Positions 15,299 through 26,235 of a DNA stretch of 64,000 bases are shown here, in pieces. The notes beneath the pieces are model-generated. The model was not told where the DNA came from, ran no database searches, and saw only the letters and a list, made by a program, of their open reading frames with translations. The position numbers and the translations under genes are program-made. This stretch comes from Cloacimonetes bacterium SCGC AAA252-N17 (GTDB lineage Bacteria > Cloacimonadota > Cloacimonadia > JGIOTU-2), in assembly GCA_000404785.1 (NCBI GenBank), contig ASNI01000003.1:7731-71730 (forward strand), read 5' to 3'. The number at the start of each line of letters is the position of its first letter. Within the stretch, counting starts at the first letter, position 1.

Positions 15299-16120
15299 AT
15301 GACAGATATTCAGCAGGATCAGCAGGAGAAGAAAAAGGAACTCTATGAAAAAAATTTGAATAACATAAAACGAACGATCGTGGTGATGAGCGGTAAAGGT
15401 GGCGTGGGTAAAAGCACTGTTAGTGTGAATCTTGCATATTCCTTAGCAGAAAAGGGAAACAAAGTTGGCATTCTCGATGTTGATATTCACGGACCCTCTA
15501 TAGTAAAAATGACCGGTATCGAAAATAAAAGATTGGTTCATCAGGAAGGGCACTCCCCAACTCCTGTGCCAGTCTCAGAAAACCTTTTAGTGCTTTCCAT
15601 CGCATCATTACTTCAGGATCCGGACAGTCCGGTTATCTGGCGCGGACCTATGAAGATGAACCTCATAAAACAGTTCATGGAAGATATTGAATGGCCCGAG
15701 CTGGATTATCTTATTGTTGACTGCCCTCCGGGAACTGGAGACGAACCTCTCAGCGTTATCCAAATCCTTAAGAAAATTTTCGGTGTGATCATTGTTTCCA
15801 CACCACAAGAACTTGCCTATCTCGATGTACGGAAAGCTATTAATTTCGCAAAAAAATTGGAGATCCCCATTCTCGGTATTGTTGAGAATATGACCGAGAT
15901 CGTATGCCCTTACTGCGGACAGAGGATCGAGCTTTTCAAGGCAGGCAGCGGAGAAAAGGCATTAAAGGATTTCAATATTGACCTCCTTGGAAGAATTCCC
16001 TTTGATGTGCAGGTCGTGCAATCCGGCGATACAGGCAAACCCTTTATTGGTGAAAATGCAGACACAGAAGCAGGAAAAATATTCAACGAGATCACTGATA
16101 AAATTTTAGAAAAATTATAA
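15299..16120 (+). CDS. Mrp/NBP35 (ApbC-type) P-loop ATPase, Fe-S cluster carrier
   Basis: Deviant Walker A MSGKGGVGKSTVSVNLA, DVDIHGPS, LIVDCPPGTGDE and a C-terminal CPYCG motif. Confidence 0.9.
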   Translation: MTDIQQDQQEKKKELYEKNLNNIKRTIVVMSGKGGVGKSTVSVNLAYSLAEKGNKVGILDVDIHGPSIVKMTGIENKRLVHQEGHSPTPVPVSENLLVLSIASLLQDPDSPVIWRGPMKMNLIKQFMEDIEWPELDYLIVDCPPGTGDEPLSVIQILKKIFGVIIVSTPQELAYLDVRKAINFAKKLEIPILGIVENMTEIVCPYCGQRIELFKAGSGEKALKDFNIDLLGRIPFDVQVVQSGDTGKPFIGENADTEAGKIFNEITDKILEKL

Positions 16121-16146
16121 ATCCTAAAAAACAAATACATAACTAA

Positions 16147-16181
16147 GACTCCTAAGCAACGCGAGGAGTCGTATTTTTTTT
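16147..16181 (+). terminator. Rho-independent terminator after the mrp-like gene
   Basis: GACTCCT (16147-16153), 10-nt loop, AGGAGTC (16164-16170), then GTA and a T8 run. Confidence 0.75.
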
Positions 16182-16186
16182 GTAAT

Positions 16187-16253
16187 CACGAATTTATCCT
16201 GTTAAATAAAATCTCCGATTTTCCCGGAGGGATTTAACAGGGTTAACACGAAT
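16187..16253. repeat. Nested hairpin flanked by a 7-bp direct repeat (MITE-like or regulatory)
   Basis: CACGAAT (16187-16193) and CACGAAT (16247-16253) flank CCTGTTAAAT (16198-16207) / ATTTAACAGG (16232-16241). An inner CTCCG (16213-16217) / CGGAG (16225-16229) stem lies inside. Confidence 0.6.
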
Positions 16254-16340
16254 GAACACTCATAAAAAAATTCACTCTTTACTTGACAATCCTATTTGCC
16301 GTCTTAAGTTTTGAACATAAGTTCATAACAAGGAAATAAA

Positions 16341-16793
16341 ATGCCACGACCAAGAAAGATCAGACGCGTAAGCAAGCCACCAATTTGCAGTAGGTTCAAA
16401 CCCGTTGGAATACCCGCACGCCTGCTGGAAAGGGTCGATCTTTCTGTTGACGAATACGAGGCGCTCCGTCTCGCTGATTATGAAGGATTCGAGCACAAAG
16501 AAGCTGCTGAAAAAATGGGAATATCACGTCCTACCTTCACCCGCCTTATTGATCAAGCACGAAAAAAGATCGCATCAGGCATCATAGAAGGAAAAGAAAT
16601 TTCTATCGAGGGCGGCGACTTCCAATTCATACAACATATAGTACGCTGCAGAAGCTGTGGTTCGCTTTCCAACTATTCACAACAAGCACCGGTAAAATGT
16701 CCCGAATGCAATGAAGCTGACCTGGAAAATCTTAATCAATATTATCAAAGAGGACGTGGTCGCGGTCGAGGACGATGGGGGCAGGGCAGATGA
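16341..16793 (+). CDS. DUF134/UPF0251 family DNA-binding protein with extra C-terminal Zn ribbon and RG-rich tail
   Basis: MPRPRKIRRV...FKPVGIP...DEYEALRLADYEG..HKEAAEKMGISRPTFTRL is the DUF134 signature. It is followed by CRSCG...CPECN and RGRGRGRGRWGQGR. Confidence 0.85.
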   Translation: MPRPRKIRRVSKPPICSRFKPVGIPARLLERVDLSVDEYEALRLADYEGFEHKEAAEKMGISRPTFTRLIDQARKKIASGIIEGKEISIEGGDFQFIQHIVRCRSCGSLSNYSQQAPVKCPECNEADLENLNQYYQRGRGRGRGRWGQGR

Positions 16794-16832
16794 ATAAAAT
16801 TTTAAATAAATCACAATACAAGGAGGCATACT

Positions 16833-24033: not shown

Positions 24034-24062
24034 ATAACATAAACAAAAGAATATGGTAAAAA

Positions 24063-24455
24063 ATGGAAAAAATAAGAGTAGCATTTGCCACTGATGATGG
24101 CAAAACCTTTATGGGAAGGCATTTTGGAGATGCGCGTTTTTATGACATTTATGAACTTTATGAGAATCAAGCTTCTTTTTTAAAAAGGATCGAAAACACA
24201 GTTGATGAAGAAGAGGATGTACATGCAGATCCTAAAAAAGCAAAGGGAATCAGCACCCTACTTCTCGAAGAAAAGGTAAATGTTGTTGTATCAAAAATTT
24301 TTGGACCAAATATTAAGCGCATAAAAAAGAAATTTGTCTGCATCGTAGTGAGAGATGATGAAATTGATATTGGACTGAAAAAAATCTGTGAAAATATTGA
24401 GAAAATACATGTCGAATGGGAAAAAGGCCAAGAGAGAACACATCTCTTAATGTAA
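24063..24455 (+). CDS. NifX/NifB-C-terminal family protein
   Basis: RVAFATDDGKTFMGRHFGDARFYDIYEL...VVVSKIFGPNIKRI. Confidence 0.8.
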   Translation: MEKIRVAFATDDGKTFMGRHFGDARFYDIYELYENQASFLKRIENTVDEEEDVHADPKKAKGISTLLLEEKVNVVVSKIFGPNIKRIKKKFVCIVVRDDEIDIGLKKICENIEKIHVEWEKGQERTHLLM

Positions 24456-24473
24456 ATCCCAGAAAGAGTTGAT

Positions 24474-25116
24474 TTGGCAAAAACAAGGGCATTCAATAAT
24501 AATTTGCACAAATATGAAGAGTGGTTTGTAATCAATAAATTCGTATATTTATCCGAATTAAAAGCAGTTGAAAAAGCAATTCCAAAAAAATGAAAAGGGT
24601 TTTGAGATAGGAATCGGCAGTGGTCTTTTTGCACAACCTTTTGATATAAAAGAAGGAATAGATCCTTCTAATAAGATGAGGGGAAAAGCAAAGGAAAGAG
24701 GGATTAAGACCATTGATGCAGTTGCTGAAAATCTCCCCTACCCTGATGAGAGTTGGAATTATGCTTTGATGGTTACCACGATTTGTTTCGTAGATGATAT
24801 ACAAAAGTCATTTCAGGAAGCTCATCGCGTTCTCAAACAAGATGGCCATCTCATCATCGGGTTTGTTGATAAAAACAGTACTGTTGGGAAAACATATTTA
24901 GAATTTCAAGATAAAAGTGTTTTTTATAAAGAAGCAACATTTTTTGGAACTGAAGAAGTCTATGAATTGCTCCAACAAACGGGATTTAAAATTGAAGAAA
25001 CCTTTCAGACAGTGTTTGGAAAACTTGATGAAATAACTGAAGTTCAAAAAGTGTTAGATGGGTACGGAGATGGTAGTTTTATCGTTATTAATGCAAAAAA
25101 AACAAAATCGTTTTAA
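24474..25116 (+). CDS. Class I SAM-dependent methyltransferase, reading frame broken at an A7 run (24584-24590)
   Basis: The upstream frame (TTG 24474) gives AKTRAFNNNLHKYEEWFVINKFVYLSELKAVEKAIPKK-stop. The downstream ORF 24568-25116 carries GFEIGIGSG (motif I) and ENLPYPDESWNY. Deleting one A yields a continuous ...AIPKNEKGFEIGIGSG. Confidence 0.75.
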
Positions 25117-25137
25117 TAAAATATTTATTTAGCTATT

Positions 25138-25680
25138 ATGAATTTGGATAATTATAAAAATCAAATTAAAAATAACAGAAAAGGAAAAGATATATTTTTC
25201 AAACAAAATTTTCAATCACCTATTTTGCCGAAAGAAAGAGCAAATTTCACAAAATTAAACTATTTTGAACCTTATCTCAAATATAGATTCGAATTGGAAT
25301 TAGAAGAATTTTCCCACAAAGAAAAAGTGATAATCAAAGATACAGGTGGAAATTTAAGGAATTTTCTGAAATGGGGAAAATTTTCTTTCGAGGTGGAAAA
25401 TAGCATCTGTGTTTTAAATGTATACAAATCTGAAGAATCAGAAACTCGACTTTTTATCCCTTTCAAAGATGCTACCAACGGAAAAAAAACTTACGGAGCA
25501 GGTAGATATTTAGACCTTTATGAGGAAAGAGACAAAATGGGAAATAAGTGGATATTGGATTTTAATTTAGCAACTAACCCTTGGTGTGCCTATAGTCCTA
25601 ATTATGTCTGTCCCTTAATTCCATCTGAAAATATTCTAAAAGTAGAGATAAAAGCAGGAGAAAAGACTTATAAGCAATAA
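25138..25680 (+). CDS. DUF1684 domain protein
   Basis: LNYFEP...GAGRYLDL...NLATNPWCAYSPNYVCPLIPSEN, a typical DUF1684 C-terminal signature. Confidence 0.8.
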   Translation: MNLDNYKNQIKNNRKGKDIFFKQNFQSPILPKERANFTKLNYFEPYLKYRFELELEEFSHKEKVIIKDTGGNLRNFLKWGKFSFEVENSICVLNVYKSEESETRLFIPFKDATNGKKTYGAGRYLDLYEERDKMGNKWILDFNLATNPWCAYSPNYVCPLIPSENILKVEIKAGEKTYKQ

Positions 25681-25749
25681 GGTGAAGAAATTAAGGATTT
25701 TTTAAATGTTAAAGCATTCCGAAAATATTGAATTAACGGAGAAAATAAA

Positions 25750-26235
25750 ATGACAAAAATAGACAAAGAAAAATGCATTGGCTGTAGCGTTTGTGTTAAT
25801 ATTTGTCCTGAAGGTTTTTTAATTAAAAACTCAATAGCTGAAATTATAGACGAACATGCTTCATGTATTGATAAAGCGGCAAATGCTTGTCCGGTTGGAG
25901 CTATTGTCACAACCAAAACAGATAAAAAGAGCACTCAATCAAGAACAAAAAAAGAAGTGTTTTCTGAATCGACTGAAAGAATTGAAAATTCATTTAGTAA
26001 TTATGGTAGAGGTAGTGGGCAAGGATTTGGTTCAGGTAGAAGTGGTGGACAAGGAAAAAACCAAGGACTTGGTTTCGGCAGTGGTGGAGGACGGGGAAGA
26101 AATCAAGGTTTGGGTCGGGGACAAGGTGGTTATTGTGTTTGCCCAAGTTGCGGACATAAAGAACCGCACCAAAGAGGTGTTCCGTGCTATCAAACTCACT
26201 GTCCGAAATGTAATTCGATTATGAGACGAGTTTAA
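25750..26235 (+). CDS. 4Fe-4S ferredoxin fused through a Gly-rich linker to a CxCPxCG...CPKC zinc ribbon
   Basis: CIGCSVCVNICP and a partial second cluster motif (ANACPVGAI), then GRGSGQGFGSGRSGGQGKNQGLGFGSGGGRGRNQGLGRGQGG, then GGYCVCPSCGHKEPHQRGVPCYQTHCPKC. Confidence 0.8.
   Translation: MTKIDKEKCIGCSVCVNICPEGFLIKNSIAEIIDEHASCIDKAANACPVGAIVTTKTDKKSTQSRTKKEVFSESTERIENSFSNYGRGSGQGFGSGRSGGQGKNQGLGFGSGGGRGRNQGLGRGQGGYCVCPSCGHKEPHQRGVPCYQTHCPKCNSIMRRV

Follow-up and report, generated by a model that had tools for sequence, protein, structure and literature searches.

Few anaerobe-specific gene clusters whose function is still unsettled are as widespread as the set that encodes the orange protein (ORP) complex. 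A neighbourhood of metal-sulfur proteins at positions 15299-26235 of a 64,000-nucleotide stretch from Cloacimonetes bacterium SCGC AAA252-N17 (contig ASNI01000003.1; hereafter the window) is very probably a Cloacimonadota version of this set, rearranged and interrupted by unrelated genes. We also lean towards a broader statement that blends identity with mechanism, namely that this is an ORP-type cluster which stores and delivers iron-sulfur, driven by ATP and redox chemistry. The storage and mobilisation mechanism, taken by itself, is put forward tentatively.

An initial annotation of the window had described this neighbourhood as a dedicated metallocluster module that had no assigned function and served a client enzyme encoded elsewhere. 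The module proved to be real and co-conserved: across 79 loci, its families are 5- to 44-fold denser near genes of the small-protein family DUF5320 than far from them. The claim that it lacked an assigned function was too strong, because the locus belongs to an already described system; the set corresponds to the ORP complex of Desulfovibrio vulgaris, which is specific to anaerobes (PMC6345978), and NCBIfam holds a model named MrpORP. The 11-kb neighbourhood itself holds as a module for its core genes, which are co-conserved, but about half of the span is lineage-specific filler. As had been noted, no client enzyme is encoded in the 64-kb window, and no conserved one was found across the 79 related loci.

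These comparisons rest on a scan of one genome per GTDB species, seeded with a DUF5320 alignment, which returned 80 loci; locus counts below refer to 79 DUF5320-seeded loci, and counts of NifX classes to 66 loci. Neighbouring families were scored with profile hidden Markov models built from the window proteins and then iterated on the loci. The window is essentially identical to contigs in four NCBI single-cell assemblies, GCA_000397885.1 among them.

An ORP-type gene set with a split MrpORP

The experimental reference is the ORP complex of D. vulgaris Hildenborough (DVU2103-DVU2109), whose members Orp3, Orp4, Orp5, Orp8 and Orp9 (MrpORP) were pulled down together as one assembly of five proteins, for which a part in cell division was proposed (PMC6345978). 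MrpORP binds a bridging [4Fe-4S] cluster on its CxxC motif and transfers Fe-S clusters in vitro to Orp3-Orp4-Orp8 (PMC6345978), the orange protein holds a Mo-Cu-S cluster non-covalently (PMC6345978, PMC5524996), and the divergent orp1 and orp2 operons are controlled by OrpR, a redox-sensing PAS sigma-54 activator that senses through a [4Fe-4S] cluster (PMC8359166) and is encoded between them. The cluster genes of the window are the following.

15299-16120, plus strand: Mrp/NBP35 P-loop Fe-S carrier (PF10609, Mrp/NUBPL ParA, E 8e-96)
16341-16793, plus strand: DUF134/UPF0251 helix-turn-helix protein (PF02001, E 7e-28; Sigma70_r4_2, E 5e-8)
16833-17198, plus strand: DUF5320a (PF17253, E 4e-26)
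17304-17600, plus strand: DUF5320b (PF17253 over residues 1-28 only, E 1e-6)
17602-17796, plus strand: Gly/Arg/Gln-rich Zn-ribbon protein of 64 residues (four-Cys ribbon; no Pfam family above threshold)
17822-18187, plus strand: NifX1, a NifX-like "Di-Nase" protein (Nitro_FeMo-Co, PF02579, E 1.6e-17)
20446-21306, plus strand: A-type MinD-fold P-loop ATPase (CbiA/MinD with two Fer4 motifs, an inserted 2x[4Fe-4S] pair)
21303-22184, plus strand: B-type MinD-fold P-loop ATPase (CbiA/MinD with two Fer4 motifs, an inserted 2x[4Fe-4S] pair)
22823-23152, plus strand: NifX2, an orange-protein-type NifX-like protein (Orp8-like, motif DPRFGR; PF02579, E 2.8e-14)
23159-23302, plus strand: remnant of a NifX3-like 5' end, 47 residues (the first ~31 are 71% identical to the start of the 24063 gene)
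24063-24455, plus strand: NifX3, of the HFGxAxFY type (PF02579, E 2.5e-6)
25750-26235, plus strand: single-cluster ferredoxin fused to a Zn ribbon (Fer4_13/Fer4_15; Zn-ribbon model, E 1e-17)

All open reading frames listed by the initial annotation were found in place on the plus strand, and a Pfam search put each into the family that had been claimed for it, leaving the Zn-ribbon protein without a Pfam family. The NifX "fragment" mentioned there is likewise real, being the 47-residue frame at 23159-23302 that matches the N-terminus of the 24063 gene. The small reading frames show more synonymous than non-synonymous codon differences relative to an 83%-identical relative; judged by this pattern, they are real genes.

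The Mrp protein, whose translation carries a deviant Walker A motif (GKGGVGKS) and a CPYC (CxxC) motif, finds its best match in NF041136, the NCBIfam equivalog model named MrpORP (365 positions; cut-off 450 bits), where it covers positions 1-251 with 361.7 bits, compared with 237 bits on the ApbC model. NifX1 also matches NF041136 best, over positions 265-364 with 97.8 bits. Because the two proteins match successive parts of one model, the window encodes a split MrpORP. The fused architecture itself is absent from the window, where the halves lie on separate genes and both score below the cut-off of 450; fused Mrp+NifX proteins (MrpORP) occur in 8 of the seeded loci. Among solved structures, the Mrp protein matches ApbC (PDB 8zkc, E 2e-62), with strong matches also to Cfd1 and archaeal Mrp. 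The motifs of NifX1 are HFGRC, PGHAPG and CEH, and those of the MrpORP Di-Nase domain are CxHFGHCE, TPPPHxPGxxP and CDH (PMC6345978). NifX1 shares 26% identity (E 2.7e-9) with the protein in the Orp5 position of the orp locus of Desulfovibrio sp. X2, but the MrpORP Di-Nase model fits it better. Orp5 itself is homologous to a [2Fe-2S]-binding protein.

The Desulfovibrio sp. X2 locus (L087) was reached by searching with the ORP sequence of Desulfovibrio (Megalodesulfovibrio) gigas recovered from the 2wfb alignment, and its ORP is 74% identical to the D. gigas protein. NifX2 is 35% identical to this ORP and matches the D. gigas orange protein structure over residues 2-107 (PDB 2wfb, E 2.4e-11) as well as PDB 1rdu (E 3.5e-12). 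NifX3 occurs in close relatives and is rare in ORP-type clusters elsewhere: over the 66 loci, ORP-type NifX proteins are found in 52 and the Di-Nase type in 42, with the NifX3 type in only 2. It scores 31.8 bits on the TIGR02663 nifX model, compared with a cut-off of 112, and the TIGR01290 (nifB) score is 16 bits against a cut-off of 344.

A pair of MinD-ferredoxin ATPases

The A and B genes overlap by 4 nucleotides, and B is probably the heterodimer partner of A. In the orp locus of Desulfovibrio sp. X2, the first ATPase shares 41% identity with the A protein and the second shares 44% with the B protein, whereas crosswise identities are only 27-31%; judged from these values, A and B are orthologous to the Orp3/Orp4-type pair. 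Elsewhere the A-then-B order holds in all 28 adjacent ATPase pairs. Invariant across A and B are the signature-lysine Walker A motif SGKGGTGKT, the eight Cys of the two [4Fe-4S] sites and a Cys seven residues past the Walker B Asp (Cys176 in A, Cys179 in B). By residue numbering, this Asp-Cys spacing equals that from Asp125 to the cluster ligand Cys132 of NifH.

The AlphaFold2 model of the A ATPase (mean predicted local distance difference test score, pLDDT, 93.6) has as its nearest solved folds MinD, FlhG, McdA and FleN, followed by BchL/NifH, ATPase-type HypB and ApbC. MinD structures head the Foldseek matches, with template modelling scores of 0.65-0.72 normalised to the target, and scores on the MinD equivalog models are far below their cut-offs. 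None of the solved structures searched combines a MinD fold with a ferredoxin insert. The last helix of the model (266-281) packs into the fold, and four residues follow it.

DUF134, DUF5320 and the Gly/Arg-rich proteins

The Pfam gathering threshold for both DUF134 (PF02001) and DUF5320 (PF17253) is 27 bits, and the window proteins DUF134, DUF5320a and DUF5320b all exceed it (97.5, 92.5 and 30.3 bits). DUF134 carries a C-terminal CxxC..CxxC ribbon and a RGRGRGRGRWGQGR tail; it is probably a local transcription regulator, and a structure search returned no solved relative of it. DUF5320a opens with MPRGDRTGPxGxGPMTGRAAGFC, in keeping with the family alignment, which shows an invariant MPxGDxTGPxGxGPxTGRxxGxC, a Gly/Arg/aromatic low-complexity segment, a Pro-rich stretch and a C-terminal helix. 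The middle segment of DUF5320a counts 17 Gly, 6 Arg and 11 Phe, Tyr or Trp among its 58 residues and is followed by the Pro-rich stretch; in its AlphaFold2 model, residues 1-87 are disordered and residues 88-120 form a confident helix. DUF5320b has the N-terminal motif in common with DUF5320a, differs at its C-terminus, and is 84% conserved, with a purifying pattern, in the relative L089.

The Zn-ribbon protein ends in the ribbon C.CP.CG..H..G.PC....CP.CG. Members of this family elsewhere usually begin with the DUF5320 N-terminal motif and continue through a Gly/Arg run into C.CP.CG..H..G.PC....CP.CG..M.R; in the window copy, the N-terminal motif is degenerate. A ribbon of the same type recurs at the end of the ferredoxin fusion, where a 46-residue Gly/Arg/Gln segment (21 Gly, 6 Arg or Lys) joins it to the Fer4 domain; the Marinimicrobia locus L090 has a 62-residue Fer4 protein within its cluster. 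Gly/Arg segments are carried by four window proteins: DUF134, at its C-terminal RGRGRGRGRWGQGR, DUF5320a, the Zn-ribbon protein and the ferredoxin-ribbon fusion.

In other genomes, gene fusions tie these families to the NifX-like domains. An ORP-type NifX domain is joined to GMGRG repeats and a coiled coil in L029, L044, L054 and L084, and this tail and coiled coil correspond to the C-terminal half of DUF5320. NifX carries a Gly/Arg tail in L055 and L059, and a Gly/Arg segment with a Zn ribbon in L040, L061, L063 and L072. DUF134 is fused to NifX in L018 (twice) and L024, and to the Zn ribbon in L030, L046 and L078. A literature search on DUF134, DUF5320 and COG1149/1433/1342 found nothing functional, and no description linking Gly/Arg-tail proteins to the ORP cluster was found.

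Gene order in the Desulfovibrio sp. X2 locus runs from a PAS sigma-54 activator through two small Gly-rich proteins, the ORP and two MinD-ferredoxin ATPases to a second NifX-like protein and then an MBL-rhodanese protein (MBL, metallo-beta-lactamase). Upstream of the ORP, at L087 7059-7900, lie a 168-residue protein with a weak NifX-like domain and a Cys- and Gly/Arg-rich tail, and a 112-residue Gly/Arg/Gln-repeat protein in the orp7 position, both outside any Pfam family. These small proteins suggest that Gly/Arg-rich partners also belong to the classical orp locus.

Conservation of the neighbourhood

The seeded loci come from bacteria that include Bacteroidales, Atribacterota, Bacillota, Planctomycetota, Chloroflexota, Desulfobacterota, Acidobacteriota and Spirochaetota, and from archaea that include Asgard archaea, Bathyarchaeota, Woesearchaeota, Thermoplasmatota and Methanosarcinales. 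Within 6 kb of DUF5320, a NifX-like gene is present in 64 of 79 loci, a MinD-ferredoxin gene in 49 (at least two copies in 39) and a Zn-ribbon gene in 47; Mrp follows with 36, DUF134 with 27, MBL with 19 and DUF59 with 7. Nearly all of these neighbours are on the same strand. Gene densities per 10 kb, compared between positions less than 4 kb and more than 6 kb from the 79 seeds, are 1.53 against 0.03 for MinD-ferredoxin, 2.11 against 0.24 for NifX, 0.91 against 0.03 for the Zn ribbon, 0.43 against 0.03 for DUF134 and 0.57 against 0.10 for Mrp. The usual order, with optional members in brackets, is [DUF134][Mrp] DUF5320 [Zn-ribbon] NifX [NifX] ATPase-A ATPase-B [Mrp or Mrp+NifX][NifX].

Further genes recur on the same strand near DUF5320.

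16 of 79 loci: PAS sigma-54 activator (OrpR-like)
14 of 79 loci: ARMT1-like/DUF89
14 of 79 loci: radical SAM protein
11 of 79 loci each: Fur, FmdB-type ribbon, TrmO_N
9 of 79 loci each: Pyr_redox_2, NifU_N
7 of 79 loci: CGGC

Three genes of the window stand in a looser relation to the core.

18205-18846, plus strand: MBL-fold metallo-hydrolase (PF00753, E 1e-13; PDB 7dck, E 1.6e-42)
27734-28027, plus strand: DUF59/FeS_assembly_P protein, a loose cluster neighbour (PF01883, E 4e-7)
32024-32869, plus strand: ARMT1-like/DUF89 protein (PF01937, E 4.5e-70), 4 kb past the span of the initial annotation

The start of the MBL gene is most likely at 18205 (213 residues), as in the gene calls of the identical public contigs. 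MBL genes adjoin ORP-type clusters in L087, L089 and L090, but the family is only 1.3-fold denser near the seeds than far from them (0.32 against 0.24), which is no clear enrichment, and the gene was therefore downgraded from conserved member to a possible accessory of the cluster whose association is weak. DUF59 is fused to Mrp in 3 loci, and homologues of the ARMT1-like protein are also present in L089 and L090.

A proposed iron-sulfur store and the alternatives

The NifX-like protein IssA (SipA, PF2025) of Pyrococcus furiosus provides the analogy from which a storage function is proposed. It combines a NifX-like domain with a disordered tail in which Gly, aromatic and cationic residues abound; the protein banks iron and sulfur in nanoparticles of anionic thioferrate and is able to restore the [4Fe-4S] cluster of ferredoxin (PMC5524996). 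Its 70-residue tail, with 15 Gly, 7 cationic, 14 aromatic and 11 Pro residues, binds thioferrate, and its authors also noted an uncharacterised "IssX" clade with Gly-rich tails (PMC5524996). In Palaeococcus pacificus, elemental sulfur induces SipA/IssA together with a second Fe-Mo-cofactor-binding protein and Mrp/NBP35 (PMC6981617).

In the mechanism envisaged here, an Mrp dimer would assemble a bridging [4Fe-4S] cluster on its CPYC motif and pass clusters to the ferredoxin domains of the ATPase pair, a step seen in vitro with Desulfovibrio proteins. ATP binding and hydrolysis by the A/B heterodimer would gate electron flow through its four clusters, and this flow could build up or mobilise labile anionic metal-sulfide species. 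NifX-like domains would hold such species non-covalently, and cationic Gly/Arg/aromatic tails would enclose them, much as IssA does with its thioferrate; DUF134 would regulate the genes locally. Overall, the system would store iron-sulfur, possibly thiometallate, and release it in a controlled way under reducing sulfidic conditions, and would not serve to mature a single client. The fusions of Gly/Arg/aromatic segments to NifX domains speak for storage, as does the recurrence of Fur, NifU_N and Pyr_redox_2 nearby. A more specific version, which we consider doubtful, holds that DUF5320, the Zn-ribbon family and the related tails are trans-acting equivalents of the IssA tail, forming a thioferrate-like store together with NifX scaffolds, the Orp3/Orp4-type ATPases and Mrp.

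Several points weigh against a store of this kind. For this organism, the proposal is drawn from sequence. Segments rich in Gly and Arg are typical, too, of proteins that bind nucleic acids or form condensates. The likeness to IssA was judged from the published composition of its tail, and the analogy needs tails that act in trans, because the window NifX proteins have none of their own. Two features of the model system are lacking, since MrpORP is split and a sigma-54 activator is missing, and the cluster genes are scattered among unrelated ones. The only physiological phenotype reported for ORP is a defect in cell shape and division, with MrpORP at the cell pole in Desulfovibrio (PMC6345978), and the cluster of the orange protein is Mo-Cu-S and not thioferrate. 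Finally, the two adjacent genes that sulfur also induces in P. pacificus are known by their annotation only, "CobQ with iron-sulfur cluster binding domain" (PMC6981617).

The reported phenotype fits a positioning or division system of the MinD/ParA type, in which the A/B ATPases would pattern the septum or position cargo and DUF5320 would be a MinE- or McdB-like partner that stimulates them. The nearest solved folds of the A ATPase (MinD, FlhG, McdA, FleN) agree with this, and the architecture of DUF5320, with its N-terminal peptide, disordered linker and coiled coil, is presumably like that of ParA partners such as McdB. Loss of orp expression in D. vulgaris leads to morphological defects, MrpORP is polar, and Orp3/4 were reported to have a MinD-like C-terminal amphipathic helix (PMC6345978, PMC3897727). 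However, both ATPases carry the invariant eight-Cys insert and the invariant Cys after the Walker B Asp, which indicate redox chemistry; Fe-S carriers, NifX-like proteins, Fur and NifU, rather than min or div genes, make up the conserved neighbourhood; no minC or minE is present in the window; and the A model, whose last helix belongs to the fold and leaves only four residues after it, shows no evident membrane-targeting helix. We therefore regard positioning or division as an unlikely primary role. An assembly line for a complex metallocofactor (for example Mo/W-Cu-S or Fe-S-C) with its client encoded elsewhere, as the initial annotation proposed, appears similarly improbable. It would suit the NifX/NifB-type domains, which carry nitrogenase cofactor precursors, the Mo-Cu-S cluster held by the orange protein (PMC6345978, PMC5524996), the radical SAM gene found in 14 of 79 loci together with the ARMT1-like gene, and the habit of Mrp-type carriers of handing clusters to targets. 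Yet no client candidate recurs in the 79 loci across phyla or appears in the 64-kb window, the sole demonstrated target of MrpORP is the ORP complex itself, the nifX and nifB models are far below their cut-offs, and the region holds no molybdenum cofactor (Moco) or other riboswitch.

It is less probable still that the locus is mainly a redox or iron-sulfur sensing module in which cluster-binding partners set the activity of DUF134. OrpR, which senses redox through a [4Fe-4S] cluster (PMC8359166), would be the precedent, DUF134 matches a sigma-70 region-4-like helix-turn-helix, and it is fused to NifX-like domains and to the Zn ribbon in other loci. Two ATPases, a cluster carrier and several NifX paralogues nevertheless exceed the needs of a sensor, and DUF134 lies within 6 kb in 27 of 79 loci only, the ATPase/NifX core persisting without it. 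That common Fe-S-related genes of an anaerobe came to lie together by chance, with no functional unit, might be suspected from the interleaved unrelated genes, the several intergenic gaps and promoter and terminator scans no better than chance. This reading is contradicted by the comparative data and was rejected: across many phyla the same families, locally enriched 5- to 44-fold, recur in the same order and on the same strand, and a number of gene fusions join one component to another, so that coincidence has almost nothing left to recommend it.

Were the more specific, doubtful version right, the thioferrate-like store would be an ATP- and electron-driven one, very widespread in anaerobic bacteria and archaea and an anaerobe counterpart of ferritin, and the long-enigmatic ORP complex would gain a function. 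The gene fusions, by joining Gly/Arg-rich proteins to NifX domains, link the literatures on the ORP complex and on IssA thioferrate, which have hitherto been barely connected. The link gives a testable idea of how strict anaerobes bank and release iron-sulfur. For annotation, DUF134, DUF5320 and the unnamed Zn-ribbon family can be labelled as ORP-cluster-associated.

Lineage-specific genes and non-coding signals

The filler genes within the neighbourhood encode an aminotransferase, a glyoxalase, PDDEXK_3, TauE, a methyltransferase, DUF1684 and PepC. The window aminotransferase, glyoxalase, TauE, DUF1684 and PepC were not found when the seeded loci were searched for them. In the Marinimicrobia locus L090 (GCA_034723415.1, 5420-16870), a contiguous cluster is followed by MBL, aminotransferase, ARMT1-like and radical SAM genes, and the series ends with two methyltransferases, DUF1684 and PepC; the window has this same set of fillers. 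Random insertion of the aminotransferase, methyltransferase, DUF1684 and PepC genes was accordingly rejected, since this locus has them in order. The common filler set points to an old gene order common to both phyla, and because the genes are syntenic in Marinimicrobia yet absent from other phyla, they reflect lineage-level synteny and not function.

A TauE/SafE-family membrane protein gene (23290-24033) lies between NifX2 and NifX3, preceded by the 47-residue remnant. In the relative L089, the two NifX genes are adjacent with no TauE between them, from which it follows that TauE was inserted in the window and left the remnant behind; the event resembles an insertion in which part of the target was duplicated. 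A PDDEXK_3 (GxxExxY-type) nuclease-superfamily gene (22337-22762) flanked by AT-rich spacers sits between the B ATPase and NifX2, and occupies the same place in L089. In the methyltransferase gene (24474-25116), one extra A in an A-run (~24584) breaks the 213-residue frame relative to GCA_000397885.1; either the homopolymer was misread in sequencing or the gene is a pseudogene. A SIR2 deacetylase gene is intact in the window (30370-31104, 244 residues) and is called as two open reading frames in the GCA_000397885.1 contig (L001 19924-20659), one more minor discrepancy between the assemblies of near-identical genomes.

One terminator-like signal stands out in the non-coding sequence.

16147-16180, plus strand: hairpin GACTCCT..AGGAGTC followed by a T-run, just 3' of the Mrp gene; a copy of an intergenic repeat motif

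The repeated 10-mer, GACTCCTAAG, occurs in 7 copies with at most one mismatch, compared with 2.3 expected, and is often paired with AGGAGTC as a hairpin. It is intergenic at 8822, 14365, 14434, 14509, 16147 and 17291 and lies within a gene at 5813. A cluster-specific operator was considered and rejected, as copies also occur outside the cluster; the element may be a small REP-like (repetitive extragenic palindromic) or terminator element. A weak likeness, TTGACAAT(T/C)C(A/T)ATTT, is found upstream of Mrp (15240-15260) and of DUF134 (16290-16310), and these TTGACAAT.C.ATTT sites could represent a promoter -35 element plus an operator. Scans for promoter and terminator consensus sequences over 14000-29500 gave counts equal to those of shuffled controls, and for this reason no operon map was drawn. 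An Rfam scan of the region returned no Moco or other riboswitch and only a tRNA-Thr.

A 41-nucleotide imperfect inverted repeat (14434-14518; 71% complementary, 3-nucleotide spacer) lies between the tRNA-Thr gene (14190-14265, minus strand) and the gene at 14568-15194, and gives spurious weak Rfam matches to microRNA precursors. Other features of the window are unrelated to the cluster: a tmRNA gene (33630-33981, minus strand) encodes the tag ADENLALAA, and two very large open reading frames span 877-8400 (2507 residues) and 10900-14175 (minus strand, 1091 residues, with a long charged coiled-coil-like middle).

Comparison with known systems

With MinD/ParA systems (MinDE, McdAB, FlhG), the window ATPases have in common the fold and the signature-lysine Walker A motif, and a small disordered, coiled-coil, partner-like gene lies nearby. 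They are unlike these systems in having a ~90-residue insert with two [4Fe-4S] sites and an invariant Cys after switch II, in forming an obligate A/B paralogue pair, and in the absence of MinC and MinE genes from the window. The NifX, NafY and NifB-C carriers have the Nitro_FeMo-Co domain (PF02579) in common with the NifX-like proteins, but the window holds no nif genes, and the nifX and nifB equivalog models are far below their cut-offs. The window Mrp has the deviant Walker A GKGGhGK[ST] and the CxxC motif of Mrp/NBP35/ApbC carriers; unlike ApbC, it has no N-terminal DUF59-type extension, and it scores higher on the MrpORP model.

IssA and the window proteins have in common an IPR003731/NifX-like domain, a disordered cationic Gly/aromatic segment and an origin in anaerobes with high Fe-S demand. 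In the window, however, the tails reside on separate polypeptides (DUF5320, the Zn-ribbon protein, the ferredoxin fusion and DUF134), which add an N-terminal Cys motif, a coiled coil and a four-Cys ribbon, and the NifX proteins are tail-less; the one-polypeptide architecture of IssA is seen only in other genomes (L029, L044, L054, L055, L059, L084).

The closest likeness is to the ORP set of D. vulgaris. Both have a paralogous pair of MinD-like ATPases with two [4Fe-4S] motifs each, an orange-protein-type NifX-like protein, and an MrpORP-type Mrp carrier with a Di-Nase domain; both are restricted to anaerobes, and the Desulfovibrio locus also has a Gly/Arg-rich small protein upstream of ORP. 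In contrast, the MrpORP of the window is split into two genes with four others between them, all genes lie on one strand instead of in two divergent operons, and no clear Orp5-type (GHC..GGC) paralogue is present in the window. DUF134 is there instead of a sigma-54 activator, a Sigma54_activat gene having been sought and not found within 10 kb on either side of the cluster. The two DUF5320 proteins, the Zn-ribbon protein, the ferredoxin-Zn-ribbon fusion and the interspersed unrelated genes are further differences. The sole experimental model, Desulfovibrio, has an atypical layout with a fused MrpORP and sigma-54 control. In the DUF5320-seeded sample, the form with DUF134, DUF5320, the Zn ribbon and a split Mrp is much commoner than the fused, sigma-54-controlled layout, and the data indicate that it is at least as widespread as that of Desulfovibrio. 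Taken together, three things set the Cloacimonadota locus apart from the one example that has been studied: its regulation, probably through DUF134 in place of sigma-54/OrpR, a split MrpORP and accessory Gly/Arg-tail proteins.

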